13,051 nucleotides of DNA, taken from the NCBI GenBank assembly GCA_041737595.1, contig JBGSRK010000015.1, positions 1 to 13,051 on the forward strand, written 5' to 3'. Shown piece by piece: positions 1 through 13,051 of the stretch. The number at the start of each line of letters is the position of its first letter. Within the stretch, counting starts at the first letter, position 1. The position numbers and the translations under genes were made by a program. This stretch comes from Patescibacteria group bacterium. Its GTDB lineage: Bacteria; Patescibacteriota; CPR2; UBA1875. A model generated the notes under the pieces. The model did no database searches. It was not told the origin of the DNA and saw only the letters and a list, made by a program, of their open reading frames with translations.

Positions 1-533
1 CTCCAGTTTTCAGATGATGGTGCTATATTTGGAGTAATATAATTATTCAGTAATCTAACTGGGAGAGTCGTAAATTCAATAACACTCGTTTCATTAATAT
101 TAGACATATTACCATTTCTGGACACTATTTTAGTTTTATAAAGTTTATTAGCCTCGAGCCCTGTAAATGAATATTCAAAGGTACCATTACCGGCGGGGTC
201 AACTTGTAACCAATCAGTTGTTTTCCCAATACCACTAATTAAAATATTATTCGCGTCGTAAAGATAATATTTAATACCAGAGTTTTCAAAATTTAGGTTG
301 CTATAATTTATATTTTCTGAATAAACAGTAATTGTATTAGAATCAAGTGTTGAATTTTTTATCTTAACATTACCAGGTGATTCTATATTGGTATACATTT
401 CATATTCAGTAGAGGGAGAAGGGTTTCCACTGCTATATGCATGAATATGTACTGAGTTATCAATATTCTTATTAACAACCCCTTCTTGAATCCATTCATA
501 GTAATTAGCGCCAGTTTTAGCACCCCCCCCCAT
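1..533 (-). CDS. Frameshifted C-terminal continuation of the giant surface protein (fibronectin type III-like domains); partial, runs off the left edge
   Basis: Manual translation is stop-free from 533 to the edge: MGGGAKTGANYYEWIQEGVVNKNIDNSVHIHAYSSGNPSPSTEYEMYTNIESPGNVKIK...GTFEYSFTGLEANKLYKTKIVSRNGNMSNINETSVIEFTTLPVRLLNNYITPNIAPSSENW. YSFTGLEANKLYK...EFTTLP is an FN3-like pattern. Removing one G from the tract at 523-531 joins it to the upstream ORF. Confidence 0.8.
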   Translation of the reverse strand, partial: MGGGAKTGANYYEWIQEGVVNKNIDNSVHIHAYSSGNPSPSTEYEMYTNIESPGNVKIKNSTLDSNTITVYSENINYSNLNFENSGIKYYLYDANNILISGIGKTTDWLQVDPAGNGTFEYSFTGLEANKLYKTKIVSRNGNMSNINETSVIEFTTLPVRLLNNYITPNIAPSSENW

Positions 534-3500
534 TTATTGATGCTAGTGGGGTATCACTTTCATCCCCTTCCACATGATCACCAGCAAAAAATTTAAATCC
601 ACCAATTGAGTCCGTTGGTTCTGATTGTTGCCATTTCCATTTAATAGATGTTTCTGTAATATTTTCATGGCTTAAATTATATGGCTTACCTGGTGGCATA
701 TATAATGAACCGTTAATTGGGGCAACAGGGGTTCTCCCAGTACCAGCTACGTAACTAATTGTCCCTGTCCATTGAGATTTATCACCATAAACAATACTGA
801 CACGTCCTCCACCCCCCCCACTCCCTTGATTTGTAGTAACAGATAAACCATTACCCCCAATAGCACTAATAACACCATTCCCCAACAAAGATCCAGTGGA
901 AACATTAACCGTACCACCAGAACCACCTCCCCCAGAACGGGTAGTTGAATAGATAGCACCGTTTGCACCATTTGAAATAATTTGACCGTTATTGGTTACT
1001 GAATTAACTGTATTTAATAAAATGGCGCCACCCCCCTTACCGCCAGTCCCCGAACTATAACTACCAGCACCACCACTACCAAGATCTACAGGCTTTTTAT
1101 CAACTCCATATGTATCTCCTCCAGTATAAAGGCTATAATAACCTCCATGCCCACCATAAGAGCCTCCTCCAGCGAAATAACTATTACTCTGGGCATAACC
1201 TGGTCCAAACCCACTCCCATTTGTACCAGTACCACCTGCGTAACCCTGTCCACTTGCATCAATCTTAGAACCAGCATCCACAGTAACATTCTTAGCATTT
1301 ATTGTAAGACCCCTACCATTGTAACTAGGGGATGTTGATATTGTGTAATAACCGAGTGGAGTAAGAGTAGAACCGTTTTTAACTAAAAGTAGACCGTTCG
1401 GGACATTTAAAGTTGAATTACCACCAACTGTCATAGTTGAAGTTAGAGCATCCCCTACTGTTGCATCTCCAGATACATTAATAGTTGAATTTGATGGGAA
1501 AGTAAGAGTCCCACTACTTAAAAGTAAATCATTATAGAAATTAAAAGTTGAAGGGGTTGTAGTTGGGTTTGTGTTACTGCCTAAAGTAGCAGTCCCCCCG
1601 TTTACATTGAATGTACCTGCATTAACAGTGGAACCATTACCGACAGTAACTGTTTTAGATGATGGGATATTAAAACTATTTGAACTTGAAGTTAATTGTG
1701 CACCAGTACCTAAGGTAATAGTACCATCAGTGTATGTTATGGGGGCAGAAATAGTAACATTAGCAACATTAGCACTTAGTGTTCCCCCATTAACTGTTAA
1801 TGATGCCCCTGAAATAGAAGTGCCTGTACCGACAGTAAATGTTTTTGTACTTGGGACAGTGAATGTATTAAGAGGGTTTTCAAGAACAGAATAAGACCCC
1901 GTGGTAAGATTCCCTGTCGCAGTGCGATTTATTTTTGCTGAAATATTACTATAATTACCAAGAGTTAATGTCCCATTATTAATATTTATTTCTGTAGTTA
2001 CTGGTATTGGGTTGGTAAGTGAGGTAAAGCTTGGAAAGGTTAATACAGCCCCACTCTGTTCTAAAGATATAGCCGTATTATTCAATGTAGCAGGTTCTGC
2101 ACTAAATAATATACTGTGGTTAGCATTCAAAGTAATATCACTTACCACACTAAATGTACCGCTCCCAATACTTACTACATTTGTATTCCCATTCGTCATA
2201 AATAATGAGCCAGAACTTAATGTAGTATTGGTCCCTGTATAAAATTTAGTGTTGTTACTACTAAGTTTTAATTCATTTGTGACTGAAATATCATTACTAT
2301 TACCTATAGTAAAGTTGTAGCCTCCATTTAATATAAAGGTATTATATTTCTGTGTTAACCCCGACTGAGTATTTGTTAAAGCGACTGTCATTGTTACAGC
2401 CAGGTCAGGGTATACCGAAGTATTAATCAATGTTTCACCGGCCGAAAAATCAATATCGGCTGGTAAATTATCGTTATTACCCCCATAGCTAGACCAGGAA
2501 CTTTGTACGCCAGTCGAATTAAGATAGCTTGCCTGCCAATGGTAACTTATGCCAGCTGTTAATTTACCACTGGGTATATTAACAGTAGCCAAATATACCC
2601 CGTTTTTAGTATCTATTATTGAGCCTTGATAAGTATTTATATTATCAATAGTACATATATCAGTCCCGGTGCACGTAAAGGCAGTGTCTACGGATCGTAT
2701 CTCAATTTGTGGGGTGAAAACATTAGTTATACCTGGGCTATTTGACTGATACCAAAAAGATAGATTTATCCCAGATTCATTTGTAGTTGCCCCTGTGCCA
2801 AGCACAGTATTACTAATTGTTTTTTGGTTACCAAACCCTAATATACTATCATTTGCAGGATAAGAAAGTGTCCCATCTTCGCCACCATTATAACTAGTGC
2901 CTTTTGTAGTAATATTTGATTCTGTAAGGGCCGAACCTGACCAAGTAGAACTATTAAATTCGATAAATACTCTACCGCCTCCGCCTCCTCCTGAGAATCT
3001 ATATGTTTCATTCCCCCCTTTACTTGCTAAAATACCATTTCCAGAAAAAATATTTGTTTTTATCCAAATACTACCACCACTACCGCCCGAGTATGTGTTC
3101 GTGCCTCCATTGGCAAGCAATGAACCGTTATTTATAAATGAATTATTAGAGATAACTTTTATTGCACCACCACCTGTGCCACCTCTGTTAGAGCCCCCGC
3201 TACCTAAATCTGTGGGCTGGTATACAGAACCGTAAGTTTCACCGTAAGGGACGCCACTACACCATAGACTCCTACCACCAGCACCACCATAACTTCCCCC
3301 GTTCCCACCCTCTAAAAGACAAGAACCAGCCCCTGGGCCATCACCTAAAATTGAACTCCCCCCTCCGATATAGCCCTGTAAGGAAGCATCAATCTTAGAA
3401 CCAGTATCAATTTGTATATTATTACCTGCGTTAAGGGTCACCCCTTTACCATTTGTCGCTGCCGTACCAGTTCCTGTGTAATATCCTTTTGGTATGATAC

Positions 3501-5481
3501 TCGAATTACCCGTTACTAAGATATCTCCTGTCCCACCAGCCACATTTACATCTATGACAGAACCGTCAATTGTATCTGTAGGCTGTATATTTAGTACTGC
3601 CCCATTTTTAACAGTTATAGATTTATATCCATTAACCCCTTGTCTATCACTATAAATAGTATATTGCTCACCATCAACAACAAGATCTCCACCAGCAATA
3701 TCACCGGTTACTCCTATTGTAATAGAAATATAAGGTATCAAGCTTTTATTAGTAATGTAGTCAGAAGAATAAAAAGTTGATGTACCAGTGGTTGCTGTTA
3801 GTACTATTCCGTTATTAGTTAATAAACCAGCTTGCCAAGCTTGAGTAATATTTGTAATATCAAATTTTTGCCAATTTACAGATGCAGAGGTAGTAAGAGT
3901 AGATGTATAACCAGTATTATAATCTCCAGTTCCAAAAGTGGTTGAAGCCCAAGTATTGGTGCCATCTTTCTTTGACCAGGTTGCTCCTGTTTCCGTCCAA
4001 CCGCTAGTTGTAAGAGGATAAATAGTAGTCGCAACGGCCGTTGTACTAGATTGGTAAAGATTTAAAGAGGCTGAAGTTATCCCCTCACCCGGGTTTAATA
4101 GAGTTGAATAATCAAAGTGTAGTAATGGACGGGTTGTTGAGGAGTTGCTAAGTGTAGTGGCAGTTCCATAATTTGTTGTTGTGGCCCCAGAATTGATATA
4201 AGTATCTTTTTTGGTGCTTGTTTCAAGTTCAACTTTAATAGTCCCTTTGTTATCTACAATATTTTGACCAGTTAAAAAAACAACTTGGAGATTTGTACCC
4301 GTAATAGTATTCCAGGTTGAACTATCTGTTGTTACTGTAATATTAGAACCATTCCAAACAATACCACCATCTGTTGAATATTGAACTGTGGTGGTAGTGG
4401 TGTATTTAATTGTATAAATATTTGGAGTTAAGGTGCTCCCCGATAGAGGTCTGACCGAGAGAAGTGGTATACCTACTGTGTTATTAGTAGTTAAACGATA
4501 ATTATTTGGCTGAATATTATAAATTGTTGGATCGAGTATCATAGGATACGTCATACTACTAAGATCTGGTATTTTAATTTTTAATGAATATTTATTTTTT
4601 TCAGTTTTAACTAAAATGTAGTCGAGATATTTTATAACTTCATTTTTATCTTGGATAAAGGGTTGTGGCATTTGAGCCAATAGGGCACCTTCATCTAAAA
4701 CAAGTATGCTTCCGTTAATATCTTCTCTAAGGTTTAATTTAGTTTCAATTATTTCATTTATTTCATAAGGATGCCCTGATTCTTTAAATATAAAGTTTTG
4801 CTTAATTCCGGTAGGTTCTGCGATTCGTTCAAGATTAGTATTAGTATAAATATTTTTATATGTTGCTTTATTGTTTTCTATAGTTGGATTTGATTTATTA
4901 AGTTGATCCGAGAGAGCAAACTTCATTTTATAATCTTTATCTAACTGATTTGAAATTTGAGGGGTAAACTCAATTGGCTTTGAAATATCTTTTTGAAACC
5001 TAAGGTTATACGGGGTTTTTAAAACCTCAAAATTATTCTCATCAAGATTAGTAATATTTGTGTCTATAAGTTGATAATTACCATTTTTATCTTGATAATT
5101 TATTTGTTCTCCATAAACACGATATTCTTTTTTCCCCTCAGAGTTTTGATAAACTCTAATGTTTGGTTTTCTTTCACTAGGAAGTTCTGCATATGCCTGT
5201 AATGGTTTTGATGGGCTGAAAATACTTGGGGCTAAAAATTGAGTAAGCGAAAAAAAAGTAATTGATATTATAAAGGCCATTAAGGTCGCATTATGGATTT
5301 TAGATGAATAAGGTTTATCAGTCCATTTTTTATATCTTCCACCTTTAGAGTAAGAGATATCATGAAGTTTTCTTATTTTAAGATGATAAAAATTTAACCC
5401 TTCGAAATACAAAAGACGAGCTTTAGATATAGCTATCCCAAAACGATAGAATATGTTTGTTTGTTTACCCTTCTTTTTCAA
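517..5481 (-). CDS. Giant secreted/surface protein (1654 aa up to the frameshift): N-terminal TM/signal segment, wall-associated-protein-like region, DNRLRE/CBM96-like domain, two Gly-rich modules, beta-helix-like T/S/N/G-rich region, start of an FN3 domain
   Basis: TTG start with AAGGGGG SD at about 5489-5495. Hydrophobic segment LMAFIISITFFSLTQFLAP; YPMILDPT motif; DTYINSGATTTNYG...RPLLHFD...WTETGATW...FDITNITQAW...NNGIVL...FYSSD; two IDASxQGYxGG...GGSYGG...PxDLGSGG...GGGGGRV modules; PGKPYNLSHENITETSIKWKW FN3 start. Domains assigned by eye. Confidence 0.85.
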   Translation of the reverse strand: MKKKGKQTNIFYRFGIAISKARLLYFEGLNFYHLKIRKLHDISYSKGGRYKKWTDKPYSSKIHNATLMAFIISITFFSLTQFLAPSIFSPSKPLQAYAELPSERKPNIRVYQNSEGKKEYRVYGEQINYQDKNGNYQLIDTNITNLDENNFEVLKTPYNLRFQKDISKPIEFTPQISNQLDKDYKMKFALSDQLNKSNPTIENNKATYKNIYTNTNLERIAEPTGIKQNFIFKESGHPYEINEIIETKLNLREDINGSILVLDEGALLAQMPQPFIQDKNEVIKYLDYILVKTEKNKYSLKIKIPDLSSMTYPMILDPTIYNIQPNNYRLTTNNTVGIPLLSVRPLSGSTLTPNIYTIKYTTTTTVQYSTDGGIVWNGSNITVTTDSSTWNTITGTNLQVVFLTGQNIVDNKGTIKVELETSTKKDTYINSGATTTNYGTATTLSNSSTTRPLLHFDYSTLLNPGEGITSASLNLYQSSTTAVATTIYPLTTSGWTETGATWSKKDGTNTWASTTFGTGDYNTGYTSTLTTSASVNWQKFDITNITQAWQAGLLTNNGIVLTATTGTSTFYSSDYITNKSLIPYISITIGVTGDIAGGDLVVDGEQYTIYSDRQGVNGYKSITVKNGAVLNIQPTDTIDGSVIDVNVAGGTGDILVTGNSSIIPKGYYTGTGTAATNGKGVTLNAGNNIQIDTGSKIDASLQGYIGGGSSILGDGPGAGSCLLEGGNGGSYGGAGGRSLWCSGVPYGETYGSVYQPTDLGSGGSNRGGTGGGAIKVISNNSFINNGSLLANGGTNTYSGGSGGSIWIKTNIFSGNGILASKGGNETYRFSGGGGGGRVFIEFNSSTWSGSALTESNITTKGTSYNGGEDGTLSYPANDSILGFGNQKTISNTVLGTGATTNESGINLSFWYQSNSPGITNVFTPQIEIRSVDTAFTCTGTDICTIDNINTYQGSIIDTKNGVYLATVNIPSGKLTAGISYHWQASYLNSTGVQSSWSSYGGNNDNLPADIDFSAGETLINTSVYPDLAVTMTVALTNTQSGLTQKYNTFILNGGYNFTIGNSNDISVTNELKLSSNNTKFYTGTNTTLSSGSLFMTNGNTNVVSIGSGTFSVVSDITLNANHSILFSAEPATLNNTAISLEQSGAVLTFPSFTSLTNPIPVTTEININNGTLTLGNYSNISAKINRTATGNLTTGSYSVLENPLNTFTVPSTKTFTVGTGTSISGASLTVNGGTLSANVANVTISAPITYTDGTITLGTGAQLTSSSNSFNIPSSKTVTVGNGSTVNAGTFNVNGGTATLGSNTNPTTTPSTFNFYNDLLLSSGTLTFPSNSTINVSGDATVGDALTSTMTVGGNSTLNVPNGLLLVKNGSTLTPLGYYTISTSPSYNGRGLTINAKNVTVDAGSKIDASGQGYAGGTGTNGSGFGPGYAQSNSYFAGGGSYGGHGGYYSLYTGGDTYGVDKKPVDLGSGGAGSYSSGTGGKGGGAILLNTVNSVTNNGQIISNGANGAIYSTTRSGGGGSGGTVNVSTGSLLGNGVISAIGGNGLSVTTNQGSGGGGGRVSIVYGDKSQWTGTISYVAGTGRTPVAPINGSLYMPPGKPYNLSHENITETSIKWKWQQSEPTDSIGGFKFFAGDHVEGDESDTPLASINGGGC
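523..531 (-). repeat. G9 homopolymer at the frameshift site
   Basis: Nine C on the + strand. Minus strand reads AAT GGG GGG GGG TGC TAA; with G8 it reads AAT GGG GGG GGT GCT AAA ACT... and stays open. Confidence 0.9.
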
Positions 5482-5511
5482 GCAAAATCCCCCTTAATAA
5501 TTTCTTCGTAT

Positions 5512-5541
5512 ATTTTACTACTTTTTTCTAAATCAATGCAA
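5512..5541 (-). promoter_or_regulatory. Putative sigma70-type promoter of the giant surface protein gene
   Basis: TTGCAT-N18-TAAAAT about 30 nt upstream of the TTG start. The AT-rich context lowers specificity. Confidence 0.4.
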
Positions 5542-5561
5542 GCAAAAAAACATGTCTATTC

Positions 5562-5597
5562 AAAAGGGACGGACCCTCTGGAGGGTCCGTCCCTTTT
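5562..5597. terminator. 17-bp perfect inverted repeat; bidirectional terminator-like or REP-like palindrome downstream of leuS
   Basis: AAAAGGGACGGACCCTC-TG-GAGGGTCCGTCCCTTTT, with A/T tracts at both ends. Confidence 0.7.
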
Positions 5598-5613
5598 TAT
5601 GCCTCTTATATAG

Positions 5614-5639
5614 GGTCTCTCCCTCGAGAGGGAGAGACC
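5614..5639. repeat. 12-bp perfect inverted repeat related to the neighbouring palindrome
   Basis: GGTCTCTCCCTC-GA-GAGGGAGAGACC; shares the CCCTC-NN-GAGGG core with 5562-5597. Confidence 0.75.
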
Positions 5640-5657
5640 GTTAAAACTTAAAGTTTT

Positions 5658-8510
5658 TTAGATAACAATATTTAAGATCTTATTTGGGATATAAATAATT
5701 TTTTTTGGTTTTTCGGTGCCAATATATTTTTTTACATTTTCTTCGACTAATGCTTTTTCTTCAACATTTTTTTGAGTACTATTTTTATTCATCATTATAT
5801 TAGCTCTGACTTTACCGTTTATTTGCACAACAATAGTCACAATGTCGTCCTCAATCATCTTCGGGTCAAATTTAGGCCATGGCTCAAGATGTACACTTTT
5901 AGTGTTCCCTAATTTCATCCAAAGCTCTTCTGCAAGATGTGGTGCAAACGGAGCAAGTATAATCGCGAATTTAGAAAGTATTATTTTATTCTGTTTCTTC
6001 TCTTTTGTAAGTGTATTTAAAAGAATCATAAGTGTACTAACAGCAGTATTAAATCTGAAATTTAATATATCTTCTTCAACCTTTTTTATGGTACGATTGA
6101 TTATTTTTTCATGTTCTATTTTTGGTTCACCTTCTTCAGTTGGTAGTTCAAATAGATTCCAAGTTCTTTTTAAAAATTTATGAACTCCTTCTACTCCCTT
6201 TTCGTTCCAAGCCGCAACGTCTTCAAATGGGCCTATAAACATTTCATATGTTCTAAAAGTATCACCGCCAAAATTTTCAATAATTTCATCTGGATTAACT
6301 ACATTCCCTCTTGATTTAGACATTTTTTGGTTATCTTTCCCAAGTATCATTCCGTGTGAATGACGTCTTTTATACGGTTCTTCAGTTGGGACAACCCCAG
6401 CATCAAATAATGCTTTATACCAAAATCTTGAATATAAAAGATGAAGAGTTGTATGCTCCATACCTCCGTTATAAAGATCGACTGGAAGCCAATATTCCAT
6501 TTTATCTCTAGCGGCAAGTTCCTTGTCATTTTTTGCATCAACATAACGGATATAATACCAACTTGAACCTGCCCAATTTGGCATTGTGTCTGTTTCTCTT
6601 TTTGCTGAACCACCACATTTTGGACATTTTACATTAACCCAAGATTCAACAGCTGCAAGCGGAGATTCCCCTGTCCCTGTTGGTTCATATTTTTCAACCA
6701 TAGGAAGTTCTACTGGTAAATCTTTTACTGGGACTGGGACTTCGCCACATTTTTCACAATGAATTATTGGAATCGGCTCTCCCCAATAATGTTGACGAGA
6801 AAAAATCCAATCGCGAAGCTTATAATTAATTGCCTTTTTAGCTAATTTTTTCTTTGAAAGTTCTGTAATTATTTTTTCTTTCGCTTCTTCTGGTTTTAGA
6901 TCATTATATTCTTCTGAATTCATTAAAACCCCTTCATCAGTCCAAGGTTGGCCATCCATAAGATCTGTTTCAAAAATATATTTATGATTTATAAGTGAAA
7001 TTTCATTTAACATTTCGTCTTTAGTTTTCCAACTTATGTGATGTAGATCCTTTTCTTCTTCTTCTCGCTCTTTTAATTCACCGTCAGCAAGTTGGATAAA
7101 GATGTTTTTTTGATAAGCATGTCTATTTACCCCTTTGTGTGGGGCATGGAATTGATCAATATGTGAAAGTTTAACATATCTTGCTTCTTTTATATTTTGA
7201 TAACCAGTTTCTTCTCTTATTTCTCTTTTTGCTGCTTCAAGTGGGTCTTCTCCTTCTTCTATCCCACCAGTAAATAGACACTTCCAGTTAAATTTAGGGG
7301 AATAATCAAGAAGGTATTTTTCTTCTTTCCAGTGTTTAACGATTACAATTACCCCATTTCTTATTGTATTTTCAGCGTCTTTTTTAGGAGGATTAATTGG
7401 ATCCACAAAAATTGGTGAAATAACCTGAATTATTGGCAAATCATATTTTTTAGCAAAATCCCAGTCACGCTCATCATGGGCAGGAACCGCCATAATTGCA
7501 CCATGACCATAGTTCATAAGAACATAATCAGATATCCAAATTGGAATTTTTTCATTATTAATTGGATTTATGGCAAAACTCCCAGTGAATACCCCTGTTT
7601 TATCTTTTTCAAGCTCTTGTCTTTCAAGATCACTTTTAAATTTAGTGTCTTTTACATATTTTAAAACATTCTTTTCTTGTTCTTTTGTTGTTAATTTTTG
7701 AACCAAAGGATGTTCTGGGGCAATAACCATAAAGGTAGCTCCAAAAAGAGTGTCTGGACGCGTTGTAAAGACCCACATGTCGTTTTCTTTTCCTTCAGTA
7801 TCAACTGCCTTAAAAAGAACTTCGGCCCCTTCTGAGCGCCCTATCCAGTTGATTTGTTGAGTTGATATTTTTGATAAATAATCAACATTTTTAAGATCTT
7901 CGATCAGTCTATCTGCATATTTAGTAATTTTAAGCATCCATTGGCTTAATTCTTTTCTTTCTGACTGAGCACCACAACGTTCACATTTACCATCAATTAC
8001 TTCTTCGTTTGCTAACCCAGTTTTACAAGAAGGGCACCAATTTATTGGCATTTTTTGTTTATAGGCAAGCCCCATTTCATATAGCTTTAAAAATATCCAC
8101 TGGGTCCATTTATAATACTGGGGATCAGTTGTATTTATTTCTCTATCCCAATCAAATGAACACCCCCAAGATATCAATTGCTTTTTAGAGTTTTCAATAT
8201 TATTTTTAATTGTAATAGATGGGTGGATACCAGTTTTTATTGCATAATTTTCGGCTGGGAGTCCAAAAGCATCCCAACCAATTGGGAAAAGTACATTGTA
8301 TCCTTGCATTCGCTTTAACCTTGAAAGAGCGTCAAGTGCACTATAACTCCGACCATGACCAACATGAAGGCGTTCACCAGAAGGATATGGGAATTCAATT
8401 AAGCAGTAAAATTTTTCCTTTTTATCAAAATCCTTGGCAGCGTAAATATTAGAATCTAACCATTTCTTCTGCCACTTCTTCTCTATTTTTTTGTGATTAT
8501 ATTCAGACAT
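5658..8510 (-). CDS. leuS: Leucyl-tRNA synthetase with an inserted Nudix hydrolase domain
   Basis: FPYPSG-RLHVGH (HIGH motif), GWDAFGLPAEN, CP1 editing motifs TTRPDT and GAIMAVPAHDERD, LRDWIFSRQHYWGEPIP, KMSKS and C-terminal VQINGKVR. Nudix box GGIEEGEDPLEAAKREIREETG at 7203-7268. GAGGG SD at 8514-8518. Confidence 0.98.
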   Translation of the reverse strand: MSEYNHKKIEKKWQKKWLDSNIYAAKDFDKKEKFYCLIEFPYPSGERLHVGHGRSYSALDALSRLKRMQGYNVLFPIGWDAFGLPAENYAIKTGIHPSITIKNNIENSKKQLISWGCSFDWDREINTTDPQYYKWTQWIFLKLYEMGLAYKQKMPINWCPSCKTGLANEEVIDGKCERCGAQSERKELSQWMLKITKYADRLIEDLKNVDYLSKISTQQINWIGRSEGAEVLFKAVDTEGKENDMWVFTTRPDTLFGATFMVIAPEHPLVQKLTTKEQEKNVLKYVKDTKFKSDLERQELEKDKTGVFTGSFAINPINNEKIPIWISDYVLMNYGHGAIMAVPAHDERDWDFAKKYDLPIIQVISPIFVDPINPPKKDAENTIRNGVIVIVKHWKEEKYLLDYSPKFNWKCLFTGGIEEGEDPLEAAKREIREETGYQNIKEARYVKLSHIDQFHAPHKGVNRHAYQKNIFIQLADGELKEREEEEKDLHHISWKTKDEMLNEISLINHKYIFETDLMDGQPWTDEGVLMNSEEYNDLKPEEAKEKIITELSKKKLAKKAINYKLRDWIFSRQHYWGEPIPIIHCEKCGEVPVPVKDLPVELPMVEKYEPTGTGESPLAAVESWVNVKCPKCGGSAKRETDTMPNWAGSSWYYIRYVDAKNDKELAARDKMEYWLPVDLYNGGMEHTTLHLLYSRFWYKALFDAGVVPTEEPYKRRHSHGMILGKDNQKMSKSRGNVVNPDEIIENFGGDTFRTYEMFIGPFEDVAAWNEKGVEGVHKFLKRTWNLFELPTEEGEPKIEHEKIINRTIKKVEEDILNFRFNTAVSTLMILLNTLTKEKKQNKIILSKFAIILAPFAPHLAEELWMKLGNTKSVHLEPWPKFDPKMIEDDIVTIVVQINGKVRANIMMNKNSTQKNVEEKALVEENVKKYIGTEKPKKIIYIPNKILNIVI

Positions 8511-8518
8511 TTTCCCTC

Positions 8519-8608
8519 GTCATTCTGAACTTCCTGCCCATCCGCAGGCGGGGATTCAGAATTTAGATTCCAGCTCAACTTATCATAAATTGATTAGGCT
8601 GGAATGAC
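8519..8608. repeat. Composite palindromic element (REP/MITE-like) in the leuS upstream region
   Basis: Terminal IR GTCATTC...GAATGAC. Internal stems ATTCTGAA(8522-8529)/TTCAGAAT(8555-8562) and ATTCCAGC(8567-8574)/GCTGGAAT(8598-8605), each enclosing a further hairpin. Confidence 0.75.
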
Positions 8609-8678
8609 AATTAATAATTACCCATTTGTAGCAAAATATTACCATAATTTATGCTTAATATAAAGAGCTCTGTGATTT

Positions 8679-8725
8679 TTTGAAACTAAAAAAGAACCGG
8701 GGGAAGGTTCTTTTTTAGTTTCAAA
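8679..8725. terminator. 20-bp perfect inverted repeat; probable intrinsic terminator of the 8734-9228 gene
   Basis: TTTGAAACTAAAAAAGAACC-GGGGGAA-GGTTCTTTTTTAGTTTCAAA, 8 nt after the stop codon. Confidence 0.75.
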
Positions 8726-8733
8726 TGTTTTTA

Positions 8734-9228
8734 TTATCTATTCATTCCGCCACCGCGATGCATTCCTCCGCCAAATCCACCACCTTGTCCTTCTGGTTCT
8801 GGCAAGATTGATTCATCTATACCTTCTGATTCAAGAAAATCATGCATTTCAGTTCTTAATTCTTGCATTTTTTCTCCACGTTCTCCATTTGCAAGAGTTC
8901 TTACTTCTTCTCTTTTTGTTTGCATTTCTTCATGTTTTGCAAGAATAGCTATTTTTTGAGCCTCTGTTATTTTACCGTCAGTAACGGCTTTATTAAGGGC
9001 ATCAGTATAAGCAACTTCTCTTTCTTCATGATTTTGTTCTCTGTCTTCATCTAATACCGCTTTTACTTCATCGGTATTAAGATTAAATTTTTCTACTATT
9101 GCCTGTACTCCTCTTGGAAAAGTATTTGTAGAATCTGTAGCTGCTTTAACTGCTCCGACTCCGTAAAGCCCAGATATAACAGTTGCTCCGGCGACTAATC
9201 CTAACGCAATTTTTTGTTTAGTTGTCAT
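8734..9228 (-). CDS. Secreted, highly charged alpha-helical protein with a Gly/Met-rich tail (Spy/ZraP-like architecture; function unknown)
   Basis: Start moved from 9246 to ATG 9228 because the SD AAAGGAG lies at 9234-9240. Signal peptide MTTKQKIALGLVAGATVISGLYGVGAVKA; motif AVTDGKITEAQ; tail GGGFGGGMHRGGGMNR. Confidence 0.8.
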   Translation of the reverse strand: MTTKQKIALGLVAGATVISGLYGVGAVKAATDSTNTFPRGVQAIVEKFNLNTDEVKAVLDEDREQNHEEREVAYTDALNKAVTDGKITEAQKIAILAKHEEMQTKREEVRTLANGERGEKMQELRTEMHDFLESEGIDESILPEPEGQGGGFGGGMHRGGGMNR

Positions 9229-9281
9229 TTTTACTCCTTTTAACACTCGTCAGTGTAGTTTAATATTTGGTACCTACACTA

Positions 9282-9312
9282 ATACTACAAATGACTTAAT
9301 TAAAATCTTTCA
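9282..9312 (-). promoter_or_regulatory. Putative ECF sigma promoter of the secreted-protein gene
   Basis: TGAAAGAT(9312-9305)-N15-TGTAGTAT(9289-9282); boxes and spacing identical to 10405-10435. Confidence 0.8.
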
Positions 9313-9835
9313 TATTTTCTGGCGCCTCAGGAGCATATGGAAGCAACATTCTTCGTTTACCTGGGTTTAACCTACGCCCTTCACCAGGAACAAATTTTCT
9401 TTGACCTTCTTCATAAAATCTCTGAAAGTGAGGTGACTCTTCAAGATTTTCATTAAGTTTTGTTGCTGATGCAAACCCACCCAAAATTACAATCCCAAGG
9501 CTAATAATAATTACTGTCCATAATAGATTTTTTTTATAACCACCTTCGTATTTTTTATATATATAAATAAGAACTCCAATAATTAAAGCTCCAATTAATA
9601 CTAACCCCCAAGGTATTGAATCAAAAATTACTGGTGGGGTTGGTCCAACACCTAATACTCCAGCTCTTCGAGGTAAATAGAATGAAAGATTAAATATATA
9701 AATAGCAGAAATCCCCAAAAAAATACTTAATACTAAAAATAACATCTTAATAAATTTAAAGAAGTTTTTTGAACGGACTTTAATGTCGTTTTTTTTGATT
9801 TTTTCTAATATCTCTTTTTTTAAGTCTTTGTTCAT
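9296..9835 (-). CDS. Membrane protein with 3 predicted TM segments; putative anti-sigma factor
   Basis: ATGA overlap with the sigma gene stop codon; short basic N-terminus followed by three hydrophobic segments. Confidence 0.7.
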   Translation of the reverse strand: MNKDLKKEILEKIKKNDIKVRSKNFFKFIKMLFLVLSIFLGISAIYIFNLSFYLPRRAGVLGVGPTPPVIFDSIPWGLVLIGALIIGVLIYIYKKYEGGYKKNLLWTVIIISLGIVILGGFASATKLNENLEESPHFQRFYEEGQRKFVPGEGRRLNPGKRRMLLPYAPEAPENMKDFN

Positions 9836-10398
9836 AAATAATCCTCTACATTAATATTTAATTTTCTTTTTAATATCTCAAGTCCTCGCTTAACCCTTAC
9901 ACCAACTGTGTTTTTTGGGATTTCTAGAATATCTGATATCTCTTCATATGATTTATCCTCAAAATATCTGAGCATTATTACCTCTCTATATTTAATACTC
10001 ATTTTCTCAACATTTTTTTTCAGCTTTTTCTTAATATCATCTGAATCGATATCTTTTTCTATCTTTTCAGCATTATTATCTTCATCAACCATCTCTTTAA
10101 TTTCTGAAAGACCGACTAAAATTTTCTTCTTTCTTAATTCATTTAAAGCTTTATTATGAGCTATTCTATATATCCAAGATGAAAATTTTCTGGTCAGATC
10201 AAAAGAATTTATATTTTTATAAACAGATATAAATACTTCCTGAAGGACATCATTAGCTTCTTCTGAATCTCTTGTAATTAAAAGTACATAACGTTCGAGT
10301 TTTTTTTGATAGCGATCGATAATTTCTTCGATTCCATCTCCCCCGTTTTCTTGCATAAAAGACGCCAACTTCTCATCTGAAAGCTTTGATAATTCCAT
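9832..10398 (-). CDS. ECF-family RNA polymerase sigma-70 factor (SigW/RpoE-like)
   Basis: 188 aa. Region 2: EEANDVLQEVFISVYKNINSFD...FSSWIYRIAHNKALNELRK. Region 4: YREVIMLRYFEDKSYEEISDILEIPKNTVGVRVKRG. Confidence 0.95.
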   Translation of the reverse strand: MELSKLSDEKLASFMQENGGDGIEEIIDRYQKKLERYVLLITRDSEEANDVLQEVFISVYKNINSFDLTRKFSSWIYRIAHNKALNELRKKKILVGLSEIKEMVDEDNNAEKIEKDIDSDDIKKKLKKNVEKMSIKYREVIMLRYFEDKSYEEISDILEIPKNTVGVRVKRGLEILKRKLNINVEDYL

Positions 10399-10404
10399 AT
10401 ATCT

Positions 10405-10435
10405 ATACTACACCATTATTTAATATTATCTTTCA
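10405..10435 (-). promoter_or_regulatory. Putative autoregulatory ECF promoter giving a leaderless transcript
   Basis: TGAAAGAT(10435-10428)-N15-TGTAGTAT(10412-10405). Only 6 nt separate it from the ATG at 10398, and there is no SD. Confidence 0.8.
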
Positions 10436-11082
10436 ATAAATATTGCTGTTTTACGCCAAATCTTAATGAATTCTTCTTTATTTATATACTTATTCTTTAG
10501 CTCTAACCGATCTTTGCTATTTTTTTTCGGATTATTTGGATCATTTAAATATATTCCAACTATATTATTATTTTCAAATTTATACCCAGTTAATACAACT
10601 AGATGTGGGTTATTCTTTTTACCTAAATTTTTATTTATACTTATAATTATTGGAATTTCCAAATCTATGCTTTTTTTAATTGTATATAACGATTCACTAA
10701 TCACTTGTTCTTTATATAAAATAATTGATTTAGCATTATGGTTCTCATTTACAATATTTTGTATATCGCTTGGTCTTATTAAATATGAATGTCTGAATGA
10801 TTTAAATCCAAATTCTTGGATTGTTTGAACTAGTCTCGAATGAATCCAACCATAGTCTTTTCTTTGACCCAATTGAAGTCTGTAAGCTCTATTCTTTAGA
10901 GATGATTTTATTAATAAATTTAATGGGATTCTTTTTTTGTTATATTTATCAGATAAATAATCAAGAATCATTTTTACTGAAACAATACCACAAGAACGTC
11001 TTTTAAAAACTTTAATATGCTCTTTTGAGCCATCGATCTCCTCAAATTCAGAATAATATGGAATATTAATTATTTTTTTCAT
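10426..11082 (-). CDS. Peptidase C39-like family protein
   Basis: IPYYSE...RSCGIVSVKM (catalytic Cys), PIIISI...PHLVVLTGY (His), YLNDP (Asp). ATG 11082 preferred over TTG 11085; TATAAT lies at 11095-11090. Confidence 0.8.
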   Translation of the reverse strand: MKKIINIPYYSEFEEIDGSKEHIKVFKRRSCGIVSVKMILDYLSDKYNKKRIPLNLLIKSSLKNRAYRLQLGQRKDYGWIHSRLVQTIQEFGFKSFRHSYLIRPSDIQNIVNENHNAKSIILYKEQVISESLYTIKKSIDLEIPIIISINKNLGKKNNPHLVVLTGYKFENNNIVGIYLNDPNNPKKNSKDRLELKNKYINKEEFIKIWRKTAIFIER

Positions 11083-11176
11083 CAAAATTATTATAACTCA
11101 ATCTAGAAATATTAGCTTTAAAATGATAGAATATTCGAGCTGTTTTCTAAATATATTATATTAATTAAATAGTTTT

Positions 11177-11252
11177 GGGCCTGTGGCGCAGTTGGTAGCG
11201 CGCCTCCATGGCATGGAGGAGGTCAGGAGTTCGAATCTCCTCAGGTCCACCA
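11177..11252 (+). tRNA. tRNA-Ala (anticodon GGC)
   Basis: 76-nt cloverleaf. Acceptor GGGCCTG/CAGGTCC with the G3:U70 Ala identity pair; anticodon arm CCTCC-ATGGCAT-GGAGG; T-arm AGGAG-TTCGAAT-CTCCT; encoded CCA. Confidence 0.98.
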
Positions 11253-11269
11253 TAAAAAATTTCGACCCA

Positions 11270-11382
11270 TTTCAGCAGCTTTATCACCACCCGAAAATCG
11301 GGCTTCAGCGGGCAAGTTCAAGAGTAAATCGTACGGTTTGACGAAATCAAGCAAGAGCTGTCCGCCTGTTGAAATGCGGTTC
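11270..11382 (-). repeat. Inverted copy of the recombinase 3' region (left arm)
   Basis: Reverse complement matches 12939-13051 at 112/113 positions; the mismatch is 11371 G versus 12950 T. Confidence 0.97.
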
Positions 11383-11462
11383 CTGGGCGGTAGCACAGAA
11401 AGGATGAAAGTATATTACAATTATTCACTCAATATACCGAGTCCTTTGAGCCGTAAGGTTCC

Positions 11463-11482
11463 CTCGCCTCAAAAGAGGCGAG
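11463..11482. other. 8-bp perfect hairpin upstream of the recombinase
   Basis: CTCGCCTC-AAAA-GAGGCGAG, followed by ATTTT. Confidence 0.6.
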
Positions 11483-11562
11483 ATTTTGGCCAGATTCCAT
11501 TGTCGGTGTAATAAGAATGCATTTGGAAGCGATAAAATATACAAACAAACGAGGAGGGATTT

Positions 11563-13051
11563 ATGCTAAAATTTTTCATCTATTGCAGAAAGTCGTCCGA
11601 GGAGGAAGAACGGCAGATTTTATCGATCGAGGCCCAGCTCCAAGAACTGCGAGACTATGCTAAACAAAATGATCTTTTGGTTACAAAAGAATTCACTGAA
11701 AGCCGAACAGCTAAGGAGCCGGGGCGACCGATTTTCAATCAAATGCTTTCAGAAATGGAAGAAGGTCATGCTACGGGTATTTTGGCTTGGAACCCTGACC
11801 GCCTAGCTCGCAACTCTATTGATGGCGGGAAGGTGATCTATCTTGTTGACGAGGGCAAAATAGAAGCCTTGAAGTTTCCGACTTTCTGGTTTGATACAAC
11901 TCCACAAGGAAAGTTCATGTTGAGTGTGGCCTTCGGACAGGCCAAGTATTACACCGACAATTTGCGCGAAAACATTTTGCGAGGAATCAGGCAGAAGCTA
12001 AGGCGAGGCGAGTTCCCCTCCAAGGCTCCCCTAGGCTACTACAATGAGCCGAGACGAAGAACAATCGAGCCTGACAAGGAAACCTTCACAAAGATGAAAA
12101 AAGCCCTTCAGCTCTACGCTGAGGGCAACCATACCCTATCTGGGATCCGAGACGAAATGTTTTCAGCGGGCTTGGTTTCAAAAACTGGAAAACCGATACA
12201 CCTCTCGACTGTTCATGGTTTTCTCAAGAATCCATTCTACTATGGTATGTTTTTCTATCGTGGCGAACTCCAGCAAGGGAGCCACCAGCCGATGATCACA
12301 AAGAAGCTCTATGACAAAATCCAAGTAGCCATGCACGACAACGGCAAGCCCCGCAAAAAGACTGATCCGAAGGGCTTCCCATTTCTAGGCTTCGCGAGGT
12401 GCGGGGCATGTGGGTATATGATAACTGCGGAACGCCACACAAAACCGAGTGGCCGCGAGTATGTATATTATCGCTGTACCAAGAAGAGCAAAGCCCAGAA
12501 ATGCTCCGAGCCGAGCTTTTTGCGGGATGAAGTGCTGGCCGATCAAGTCACAGAAAGATGTCAAAGAGCTTCTATCCCCGACGAATGGAGAGACAAATTC
12601 CTAGAAAAAGTAGCCCTCTGGGAACAAGAACAAAATGACTCGACAGGCGTTATGAGTGGGAAGCTCAAGGATAAGCTCCGAGAGATAGGCATTAAACTAG
12701 ATAGACTCTCAAATGGCTATCTTGAAGGGGCTTATGAGCTTCCAGAATATCACCTAAAGAAAAACAATCTAACCGAACAAAAGAAGGATCTGGAAGAGAA
12801 GTTATCCGATTTTGAGCGGAAAGGTAATCATCGGCTCGAACTTTTGAAAAACTGGATTCTTGAAGCCAACCAAGCGGGAAATCTGGCCAAAACAAAAAAT
12901 TTCCCACTGATGAGAAATTTTTTGAAAACCGTCGGCTCGAACCGCATTTTAACAGGCGGACAGCTCTTGCTTGATTTCGTCAAACCGTACGATTTACTCT
13001 TGAACTTGCCCGCTGAAGCCCGATTTTCGGGTGGTGATAAAGCTGCTGAAA
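11563..13051 (+). CDS. Large serine recombinase (resolvase, recombinase, Zn-ribbon and coiled-coil regions); 3' partial
   Basis: SD GAGGAGG at 11551-11557. MLKFFIYCRKSSEEEERQILSIEAQ (catalytic Ser), GRPIFNQM, AWNPDRLARN, APLGY, LKNPFYYG, GSHQPMI, Zn ribbon CGACG...YYRCTKK...KC. Stop-free for 496 codons to the window edge. Confidence 0.96.
   Translation, partial: MLKFFIYCRKSSEEEERQILSIEAQLQELRDYAKQNDLLVTKEFTESRTAKEPGRPIFNQMLSEMEEGHATGILAWNPDRLARNSIDGGKVIYLVDEGKIEALKFPTFWFDTTPQGKFMLSVAFGQAKYYTDNLRENILRGIRQKLRRGEFPSKAPLGYYNEPRRRTIEPDKETFTKMKKALQLYAEGNHTLSGIRDEMFSAGLVSKTGKPIHLSTVHGFLKNPFYYGMFFYRGELQQGSHQPMITKKLYDKIQVAMHDNGKPRKKTDPKGFPFLGFARCGACGYMITAERHTKPSGREYVYYRCTKKSKAQKCSEPSFLRDEVLADQVTERCQRASIPDEWRDKFLEKVALWEQEQNDSTGVMSGKLKDKLREIGIKLDRLSNGYLEGAYELPEYHLKKNNLTEQKKDLEEKLSDFERKGNHRLELLKNWILEANQAGNLAKTKNFPLMRNFLKTVGSNRILTGGQLLLDFVKPYDLLLNLPAEARFSGGDKAAE
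12939..13051 (+). repeat. Right arm of the inverted repeat, inside the recombinase CDS; truncated by the window edge
   Basis: Reverse complement of 11270-11382. Confidence 0.97.

Follow-up and report, generated by a model that had tools for sequence, protein, structure and literature searches.

The stretch of DNA considered here, hereafter the window, is the whole of a 13,051-nt contig (C80) from a 143-contig, 1.09-Mb bin (G000) of a Patescibacteria group bacterium. Judged from its sequence, the window contains one end of a genomic island that a large serine recombinase (LSR) has integrated into the 3' end of a tRNA-Ala gene, and positions 1-279 of a second contig of the bin (C108) are the far end of the same island. 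The recombinase gene runs across the island's own attachment (att) site, an inverted spare copy of the gene's end stands upstream of it, and related islands occur in two orientations that give the protein different C-termini. There is reason to think, with a probability of roughly 0.6, that these observations describe a single system: an island at a tRNA end whose LSR carries the att site inside its open reading frame (ORF) together with an inverted spare of the gene's end, in which the two forms interconvert and the change of tail alters the activity of the enzyme. In what follows a denotes the last ~130 nt of the LSR gene and a' its inverted copy, while b and b' denote the arm pair that flanks the cargo of the island.

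The inverted repeat and the ends of the island

An earlier note on this DNA had described 11270-11382 and 12939-13051 as inverted arms, one of them the recombinase's own coding end, had taken them as the ends of an inversion cassette, and had warned that a chimera produced by multiple displacement amplification (MDA) would give the same pattern. Alignment upholds the repeat, the upstream segment being the reverse complement of the downstream one over 113 nt (112/113, 99%, one mismatch) with a clean divergence inside 11383/12938, and the ORF at 11563-13050 bears out that one arm is the coding end of the recombinase. Since the runner-up among the inverted pairs of the window measures 34 nt at 74%, the match is far beyond chance. 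The repeat is in fact longer than it had first appeared: identity in a 148-nt contig of sequencing run X1 and in a relative of the window (L001) extends to 11247, so that each arm measures 136 nt in total (124 nt exact), including the last 6 nt of the tRNA gene, and the right copy is merely truncated by the contig end. The sole difference between the arms would, if the upstream base were read in the recombinase frame, replace a Leu with a Ser; in L001 both arms have the A. The features concerned are these:

1..11246: host chromosome, GC 23-44%, with leucyl-tRNA synthetase (LeuRS), a sigma-70 family factor, a C39-like peptidase and others (composition, Pfam)
11177..11252, + strand: tRNA-Ala(GGC), the host gene and attB-derived half (ARAGORN; Rfam RF00005, 65.9 bits)
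11247..11382: upstream arm (core + a'), which repeats the recombinase gene's last ~45 codons in inverted form and adjoins the tRNA gene in the window
11383..11562, + strand: unique region 5' of the recombinase gene, 180 nt between arm and gene
11563..13051, + strand: large serine recombinase gene, 496 codons, with the contig end ~23 codons short of the stop predicted from C108 and L001
12939..13051, + strand: downstream arm (a), which is the 3' coding part of the recombinase gene and stops with the contig
11371: sole arm-to-arm difference, G against A at 12950, in the non-coding copy

The repeat is biological and is no artefact of assembly or MDA. Contigs (k=31) from four public runs were aligned to positions 10000-13051 of the window, and the best-matching run, X1, gave the 148-nt contig over 11247-11370 at a depth of 16.5, a 1640-nt loop contig over 11341-12980 that enters the arm at both ends at a depth of 9.54, and host contigs at 8.97. 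An arm depth of about twice that of loop and host indicates that the arm is present twice per copy. The outer end of the arm leads either to tRNA-Ala (a contig of X2 over 10992-11276) or to a second, unrelated 24-nt context, which in X1 is exactly the b side of L001, and the two contexts part at 11246/11247 in runs X1, X2 and X4. Run X4, a lake sample from another study, holds a 92%-identical relative with the same inner boundary and with its arm joined to a different tRNA; its arm depth of 16.5 against 19.1 for the loop is not twofold and is left out of the argument. That the match touches the contig end is what would be said for an MDA chimera or an assembler fold-back with no biological repeat behind it, and next to no chance is left to that explanation by the doubled arm depth and the two outer contexts in X1, by the preserved inner boundary in a relative from an unrelated lake, and by the presence of the repeat in 130 of 150 distinct loci, among them single-contig genomes and loci whose arms have diverged, which cannot be assembler fold-backs. 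The caveat about MDA is thereby ruled out.

What the view of a plain inversion cassette had missed is that the outer end of the arm marks the att crossover at which an island has integrated. GC content steps from 23-28% before the tRNA gene to 40-51% in the island DNA that begins at 11247. At the other end, C108:1-279 is GC-rich, finishes with b and the core, and gives way to AT-rich host DNA (GC 57% to 27-33%). The core, which comprises the last 4-17 nt of the tRNA, is 6 nt long in the window (11247-11252) and is repeated at C108:274-279. The island thus has the marks of a tRNA-borne element: a direct repeat of the core at both ends, a break in composition, and a recombinase gene at one end. 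Neither its cargo nor a second b' copy was found in the bin, where C108:1-300 matches only itself. The last ~21 nt of tRNA-Ala recur ~165 nt past the island end (C108:441-462, L081), perhaps as a scar left when this tRNA was the target of a previous integration.

Relatives with more complete assemblies supply the rest of the layout. Many loci carry a second inverted pair, b'/b, of 47-409 nt, which lies against the upstream arm and brackets 2-5 kb of cargo; the upstream arm adjoins the b arm in most relatives and the tRNA gene in the window. In all nine loci (9/9) that have both pairs, and also in the single-contig genome G353, the left end passes from host into core-b', the right end passes from a-core into the tRNA gene, and the internal junction, read backwards, is a-core-b'. 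These end structures mean that the island spans core-b' to a-core, flanked by the direct repeat of the core, and that the internal junction is an inverted and complete copy of the attP that excision would form. The upstream arm, correctly recognized before as an inverted copy of the gene's end, is also one half of this complete second attP-like site.

The spacing of sequence motifs in these sites agrees with what is known of serine integrases. In an analysis of 80 loci that covered the tRNA-side half of the att sites, the b' half was found to have a T-loop-like heptamer 5 nt farther outward than the tRNA's own T-loop, with a match fraction of 0.378 at +5 vs 0.165-0.294 at the other 18 shifts. 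For the integrase of the Listeria phage LI, the zinc-ribbon motif is placed 5 bp nearer the centre in attB than in attP half-sites (PMC3783163). The displacement between b' and the tRNA is the attP/attB relation of the LI integrase.

The recombinase, its tail and its relatives

By the order of its domains the window recombinase is an LSR. The ORF at 11563-13050, which is open at its 3' end, matches Resolvase (PF00239, 4e-20, residues 5-150), Recombinase (PF07508, 6.5e-9, residues 178-258) and Zn_ribbon_recom (PF13408, 4.3e-10, residues 273-333). It falls in no named, characterised subfamily: NCBIfam matches to XisF and CcrA/B/C were far under the cut-off (107.9 vs 375 for XisF and 96.3 vs 900 for CcrB), and PDB returned weak matches to the SPbeta and A118 integrase structures, the best full-length one at E 6e-5. 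Direct reading of the unique region ahead of the gene reveals an 8-bp GC-rich hairpin at 11463-11482 and, ahead of the ATG, the ribosome-binding site GAGGAGG; a terminator scan of 11383..11562 found none and left the hairpin unscored.

Across the family the LSR frame passes through a (~130 nt) and the core and then enters b', a P-type half-site that encodes a conserved tail, and the crossover point therefore lies within the recombinase's own ORF. The tail beyond the core is ~15-18 residues long, with the stop after a median of 17 residues (n=83, minus strand of the spare copy), and the spare copy as a whole consists of the last ~40 codons, the core and the tail. Most of the 77 distinct spare-copy peptides end roughly in W-x-C-L-L-x-K-[I/V/A]-R-T-[F/Y]-F-x-x-N-P, and the ~25 residues that precede this motif vary freely. 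Arginine in the tail is encoded by CGA 64 times, CGG 9 times and AGA 6 times, and threonine by all four codons; this variety of codons suggests that the tail is conserved by selection at the protein level, even though these bases double as the half-site motif.

In the common form of the locus the ORF runs instead into the antisense strand of a tRNA gene and acquires unrelated tails with a median of 17.7 residues and a maximum of 108, which often contain D-S-N-P-R from the T-arm. Integration at the gene-proximal attP thus clips the conserved tail, which is present on only one of the 160 assembled LSR ORFs (L115, on a 2.8-kb contig) and absent from the other 159. Pattern matching among protein clusters near L115 assigned the native tail to 30 of the 120 listed and an antisense-tRNA tail to 50, with 40 unclassified. 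The tail-bearing clusters, which stand mostly on contigs of 1.6-3.4 kb and in some cases of up to 37 kb, could be genuine whole-gene or free forms, or else products of greedy assembly across a collapsed repeat, and are given no weight here.

Relatives of the recombinase are common in Patescibacteria. At E <= 1e-30 they are encoded in 218 of 401 sampled genomes, and of the best 30 loci from species-representative genomes, the ones in which the repeat was checked, 27 (the window among them) have it. A larger collection was drawn from candidate stretches, in which relatives were encoded in 577/599 from species genomes and in 589/599 from metagenome contigs; 80 loci were kept from each source, for a total of 160 with 150 distinct LSR sequences. 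Over these distinct loci the inverted repeat between gene end and upstream region, which the earlier note had proposed to seek in related genomes, recurs as already stated, and a convergent tRNA lies directly downstream of the gene in 102/150. The spare copy is found ~130 nt (median) upstream of the LSR gene, and the outer end of the arm overlaps the tRNA 3' end by ~5-6 nt. The targets are tRNAs for Ala, Val, Ile, Gln, Ser, Gly and Pro, and also for Leu, Asn, Lys and Glu.

The 111 arm pairs that are clear of contig ends have a median length of 124 nt and are closely alike: 39 are identical (100%), 31 are at 98-99.99%, 19 at 95-98%, 16 at 90-95% and 6 below 90%. Two single-contig genomes contribute arms of 124 nt at 100% at tRNA-Ala(GGC) (G353) and of 113 nt at 90% at tRNA-Ile (G034). 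In 66 of 140 repeat-bearing loci less than 1 kb of contig precedes the recombinase gene, which points to a systematic assembly break caused by the repeat at the island, one that parts the cargo from metagenome-assembled genomes (MAGs).

Where it can be read, the cargo consists mostly of defence genes, which include type I, II and III restriction-modification systems, OLD-family and AbiE-like genes, a DpnI-like enzyme and a Schlafen-like protein, together with some transporters. One island also encodes an aminoglycoside-2''-adenylyltransferase family protein (L025, 4721-5239, minus strand; PF10706, E 1e-25), and islands can accordingly carry more than defence genes. Some MAGs contain two islands (L002 and L007 at tRNA-Ala TGC and GGC; L041 and L050 at tRNA-Ser CGA and GGA; L006 and L015), and no adjoining tRNA was found at L006 or L015. 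A viral origin is unlikely, one weak relative having been found among viral contigs.

Two orientations and how they may arise

In the common form (102/150) the order is host, core-b', cargo, b-core-a', the LSR gene running into a-core, and a convergent tRNA gene, whose antisense codons replace the tail. L001, which is related to the window recombinase at 96% protein and 92% DNA identity, has this form: its second context is followed by the core and a', and the LSR gene then runs through a and the core up to a convergent tRNA. From the window on to C108 the elements are tRNA-Ala, core-a', the LSR gene running into a-core-b', unassembled cargo, b-core, and host DNA on C108. The window as assembled is therefore the rarer, whole-gene form, in which the gene reads toward its native tail, and the reverse strand of C108:1-279 encodes a 15-residue tail and a stop for the window recombinase.

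Both forms exist in nature. Two loci with LSRs 78% identical and tRNA-Ser(GCT) genes 87.5% identical (L079 and L048) have opposite orientations, and a third (L185) has the opposite-form join with 85-nt arms and a decayed gene. In two further loci the module stands between inverted tRNA genes: L151 (9718-11531) between tRNA-Gln genes with anticodons CTG and TTG, and L122 (7773-9772) between two tRNA-Gly(TCC) regions that are 85% alike. These suggest a rearrangement or deletion of the chromosome by way of the internal attP-like site, and L151 in particular suggests that the internal attP copy can meet a second tRNA.

The idea that a flip of the interior would join the gene in frame to the tRNA-proximal end has proved sound. 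The minus strand of the left arm holds an in-frame ORF of 51 aa (11241-11396) with a TGA stop inside the tRNA gene, and a recombinase gene joined to this arm would end one codon past the core, at that TGA. The proposal that the recombinase exchanges or loses its C-terminus by inversion survives in part: inverted repeats do flank a segment that encodes a recombinase, as in an inversion switch, both orientations occur among relatives, and they give different C-termini of which only one has the conserved tail, but the window as assembled is in the whole-gene state and not in the one that would lose a C-terminus.

Two routes could account for the pair of forms. Inversion of the segment between the 85-157-nt arms would interconvert them, or the excised circle could use one or the other of its two attP copies to integrate, a route to both forms that is as simple as inversion. 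A serine-integrase half-site needs ~25 bp (PMC3783163), and arms of 85-157 nt, being far longer than this, would suit homologous recombination. We infer that the forms interconvert, and that clipping and restoring the tail would change the activity of the recombinase, which would lock the island or re-arm it. The spare end is much longer than a binding site and is kept across clades that are ~47% identical, which argues that the clipping and restoring of the tail matters to the element, and this is the reading that is favoured. A more specific version, in which integration clips the tail, disarms the LSR and so locks a defence island in place, and inversion at the arms re-arms it for excision and transfer as a programmed latch, is offered tentatively and is in doubt. 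The excess of the clipped form (102/150) fits a locked resting state, and it also fits the mere rarity of the other route.

Several observations weigh against interconversion with an effect on the enzyme. By the published rules, attP and attR are not partners for a serine integrase (PMC3783163), so that any inversion may be driven by RecA or may not happen. The two orientations were not seen within one population, and contigs at k=31 give the same graph either way. In the window, the join of tRNA, arm and upstream region is an assembler's path through a 136-nt repeat at ~9x, and the contig, oddly, gives out in the right arm with 23 nt still to go to the core, such that a mis-walk from the common form is possible. 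The forms are very unequal, with 102/150 in the common form and a handful in the opposite one, an imbalance that free inversion and a pair of equivalent attP sites alike fail to predict unless selection is added. Conservation of the tail may derive in part from recognition of the P half-site DNA and not from protein function. Finally, a search of 40 relatives, of which even the nearest are too distant to serve as neighbours, found no empty site, the sole strong match (G022, 67% identity) being a locus without a tRNA.

The doubt about the window's own orientation amounts to an alternative in which the repeat is real, the true locus has the common form and the window is misassembled. The length of the arms is near the apparent k of 141, depth is only ~9x, the contig ends within the right arm, and fold-back contigs are known in the family, for example L106, with 2122-nt inverted ends at 100%. 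A contig across 11246-11383 nevertheless requires bridging words, the opposite form among MAG contigs is rare and not random, and opposite-form joins occur where the arms are only ~85 nt (L185, and L122 with the tRNA included in the repeat), so that misassembly is judged unlikely. In L106 itself, a metagenome contig of 8610 nt, each 2122-nt inverted end holds the whole recombinase module around a 4.4-kb cargo, which looks like an assembler's stem-loop-stem walk through the b repeat.

It might also be supposed that there is no inversion at all, that the two forms are one circle linearised through either of two attP copies, and that the spare has no regulatory role, its long arms being kept alike by gene conversion. 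The internal site is identical in sequence to the excision attP and obeys the +5 rule, L151 (Gln CTG/TTG) and L122 (Gly on both sides) are the products expected if the internal site meets a second attB, and no reaction outside the known rules of serine integrases is needed. Two identical sites would, however, be expected to see similar use, whereas most loci have the common form, and a half-site of ~25 bp does not call for 85-157 nt of coding homology conserved across 47%-identical clades; on these grounds the explanation appears rather improbable. Very improbable is a further possibility, that the spare copy is expressed alone as a C-terminal peptide of ~60-70 aa that complements or regulates the clipped recombinase in trans. 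In the 77 distinct peptides read from spare copies, arm and tail form an unbroken reading frame, but there is no consistent start (among 85, the first in-frame start is TTG in 51, ATG in 15, GTG in 14 and absent in 5) and a Shine-Dalgarno-like motif precedes only 14/85. Two other schemes were dropped by reasoning. A single-strand fold-back attP of the CTX-like type would, with the double-strand cleavage of serine enzymes, leave hairpin-capped chromosome ends, and 2-micron-like amplification needs recombination of attP with attP, which the known rules disfavour (PMC3783163).

Comparison with known systems and neighbouring genes

The Hin, Gin and Cin segments and the R64 shufflon resemble these islands in that inverted repeats in coding sequence join alternative 3' ends to one gene, and in the Hin system the recombinase gene itself lies inside the invertible segment. 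Those systems swap the ends of tail-fibre, pilin or flagellin-control genes and are not known to swap that of the recombinase, and their repeats are short recombinase sites and not integration sites.

Closer parallels are found among integrases that contain their own att site. The integrase of myxophage Mx8 is a tyrosine recombinase. In this phage attP lies inside the integrase gene, and integration creates a new 3' end (intP to intX) and an altered enzyme, as set out in a review (PMC6070905). The likeness is that the att site is within the integrase coding sequence and integration changes the protein; the differences are that the Patescibacteria enzyme is an LSR, that only ~15-18 residues are exchanged, and that no inverted spare gene end is mentioned in that review's passage on Mx8 (PMC6070905). 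The 'suicidal' integrases of the SSV type also have the att site within the integrase gene. According to a review (PMC8371274), they are tyrosine recombinases, exclusively archaeal, whose gene is split in two, and a role in the control of directionality has been proposed. The Patescibacteria family differs in being bacterial and serine-type, in losing the tail only and in keeping a spare, of which that review's passages on the SSV type make no mention (PMC8371274). The Patescibacteria LSR works like the Mx8 and SSV-type systems and is a member of neither, given that its domains are those of a serine and not of a tyrosine recombinase.

The serine integrases of phages (LI/A118, phiC31, Bxb1, SPbeta) share with it the domain set, the 5-bp offset between attB and attP, and a short core. 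The Patescibacteria LSR is very distant from them, has attP in its ORF and a second, inverted attP in each element, and targets tRNA 3' ends with the T-loop as its motif.

No earlier description of this architecture was found in the literature searched, subscription journals and supplements lying outside the search. The combination that appears to be new is a serine recombinase with the att site in its own gene plus an inverted spare end; an att site in an integrase gene was already known elsewhere. The family is a very large, previously uncharted natural set of serine recombinases whose attB and attP can be read from genomes, which makes it raw material for integrase tools, and its islands are among the main carriers of defence genes, restriction-modification included, in Patescibacteria. 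It also points to the control of a serine integrase by editing of its own gene, a principle so far described for the tyrosine enzymes of Mx8 and the SSV type. If the latch were true, the 'suicidal' integrases would have in it their first counterpart among serine recombinases and their first in bacteria, one equipped with its own repair part, and it would be widespread, as the 218 of 401 genomes with LSR relatives (not all of them checked for the repeat) would imply.

Outside the island, bin G000 probably contains foreign short contigs: 87 of its 143 contigs exceed 45% GC and are mostly 1.5-6 kb long, and the large contigs are at ~31-34%. One of its contigs (C5, 6676 nt, GC 58%) ends in perfect 140-nt inverted repeats, which have no match to the island's b arm, and could represent a further loop between repeats in the assembly graph. 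In the host part of the window, a 1654-aa ORF with internal repeats at 517-5481 (minus strand), for which Pfam gave a sub-threshold TGFb_propeptide match only, is probably a large surface protein. The LeuRS ORF at 5658-8510 (minus strand) has a match to a NUDIX domain at residues 388-500 (E 4.8e-13), an unusual insertion that sits between the editing domain and the remaining catalytic core.

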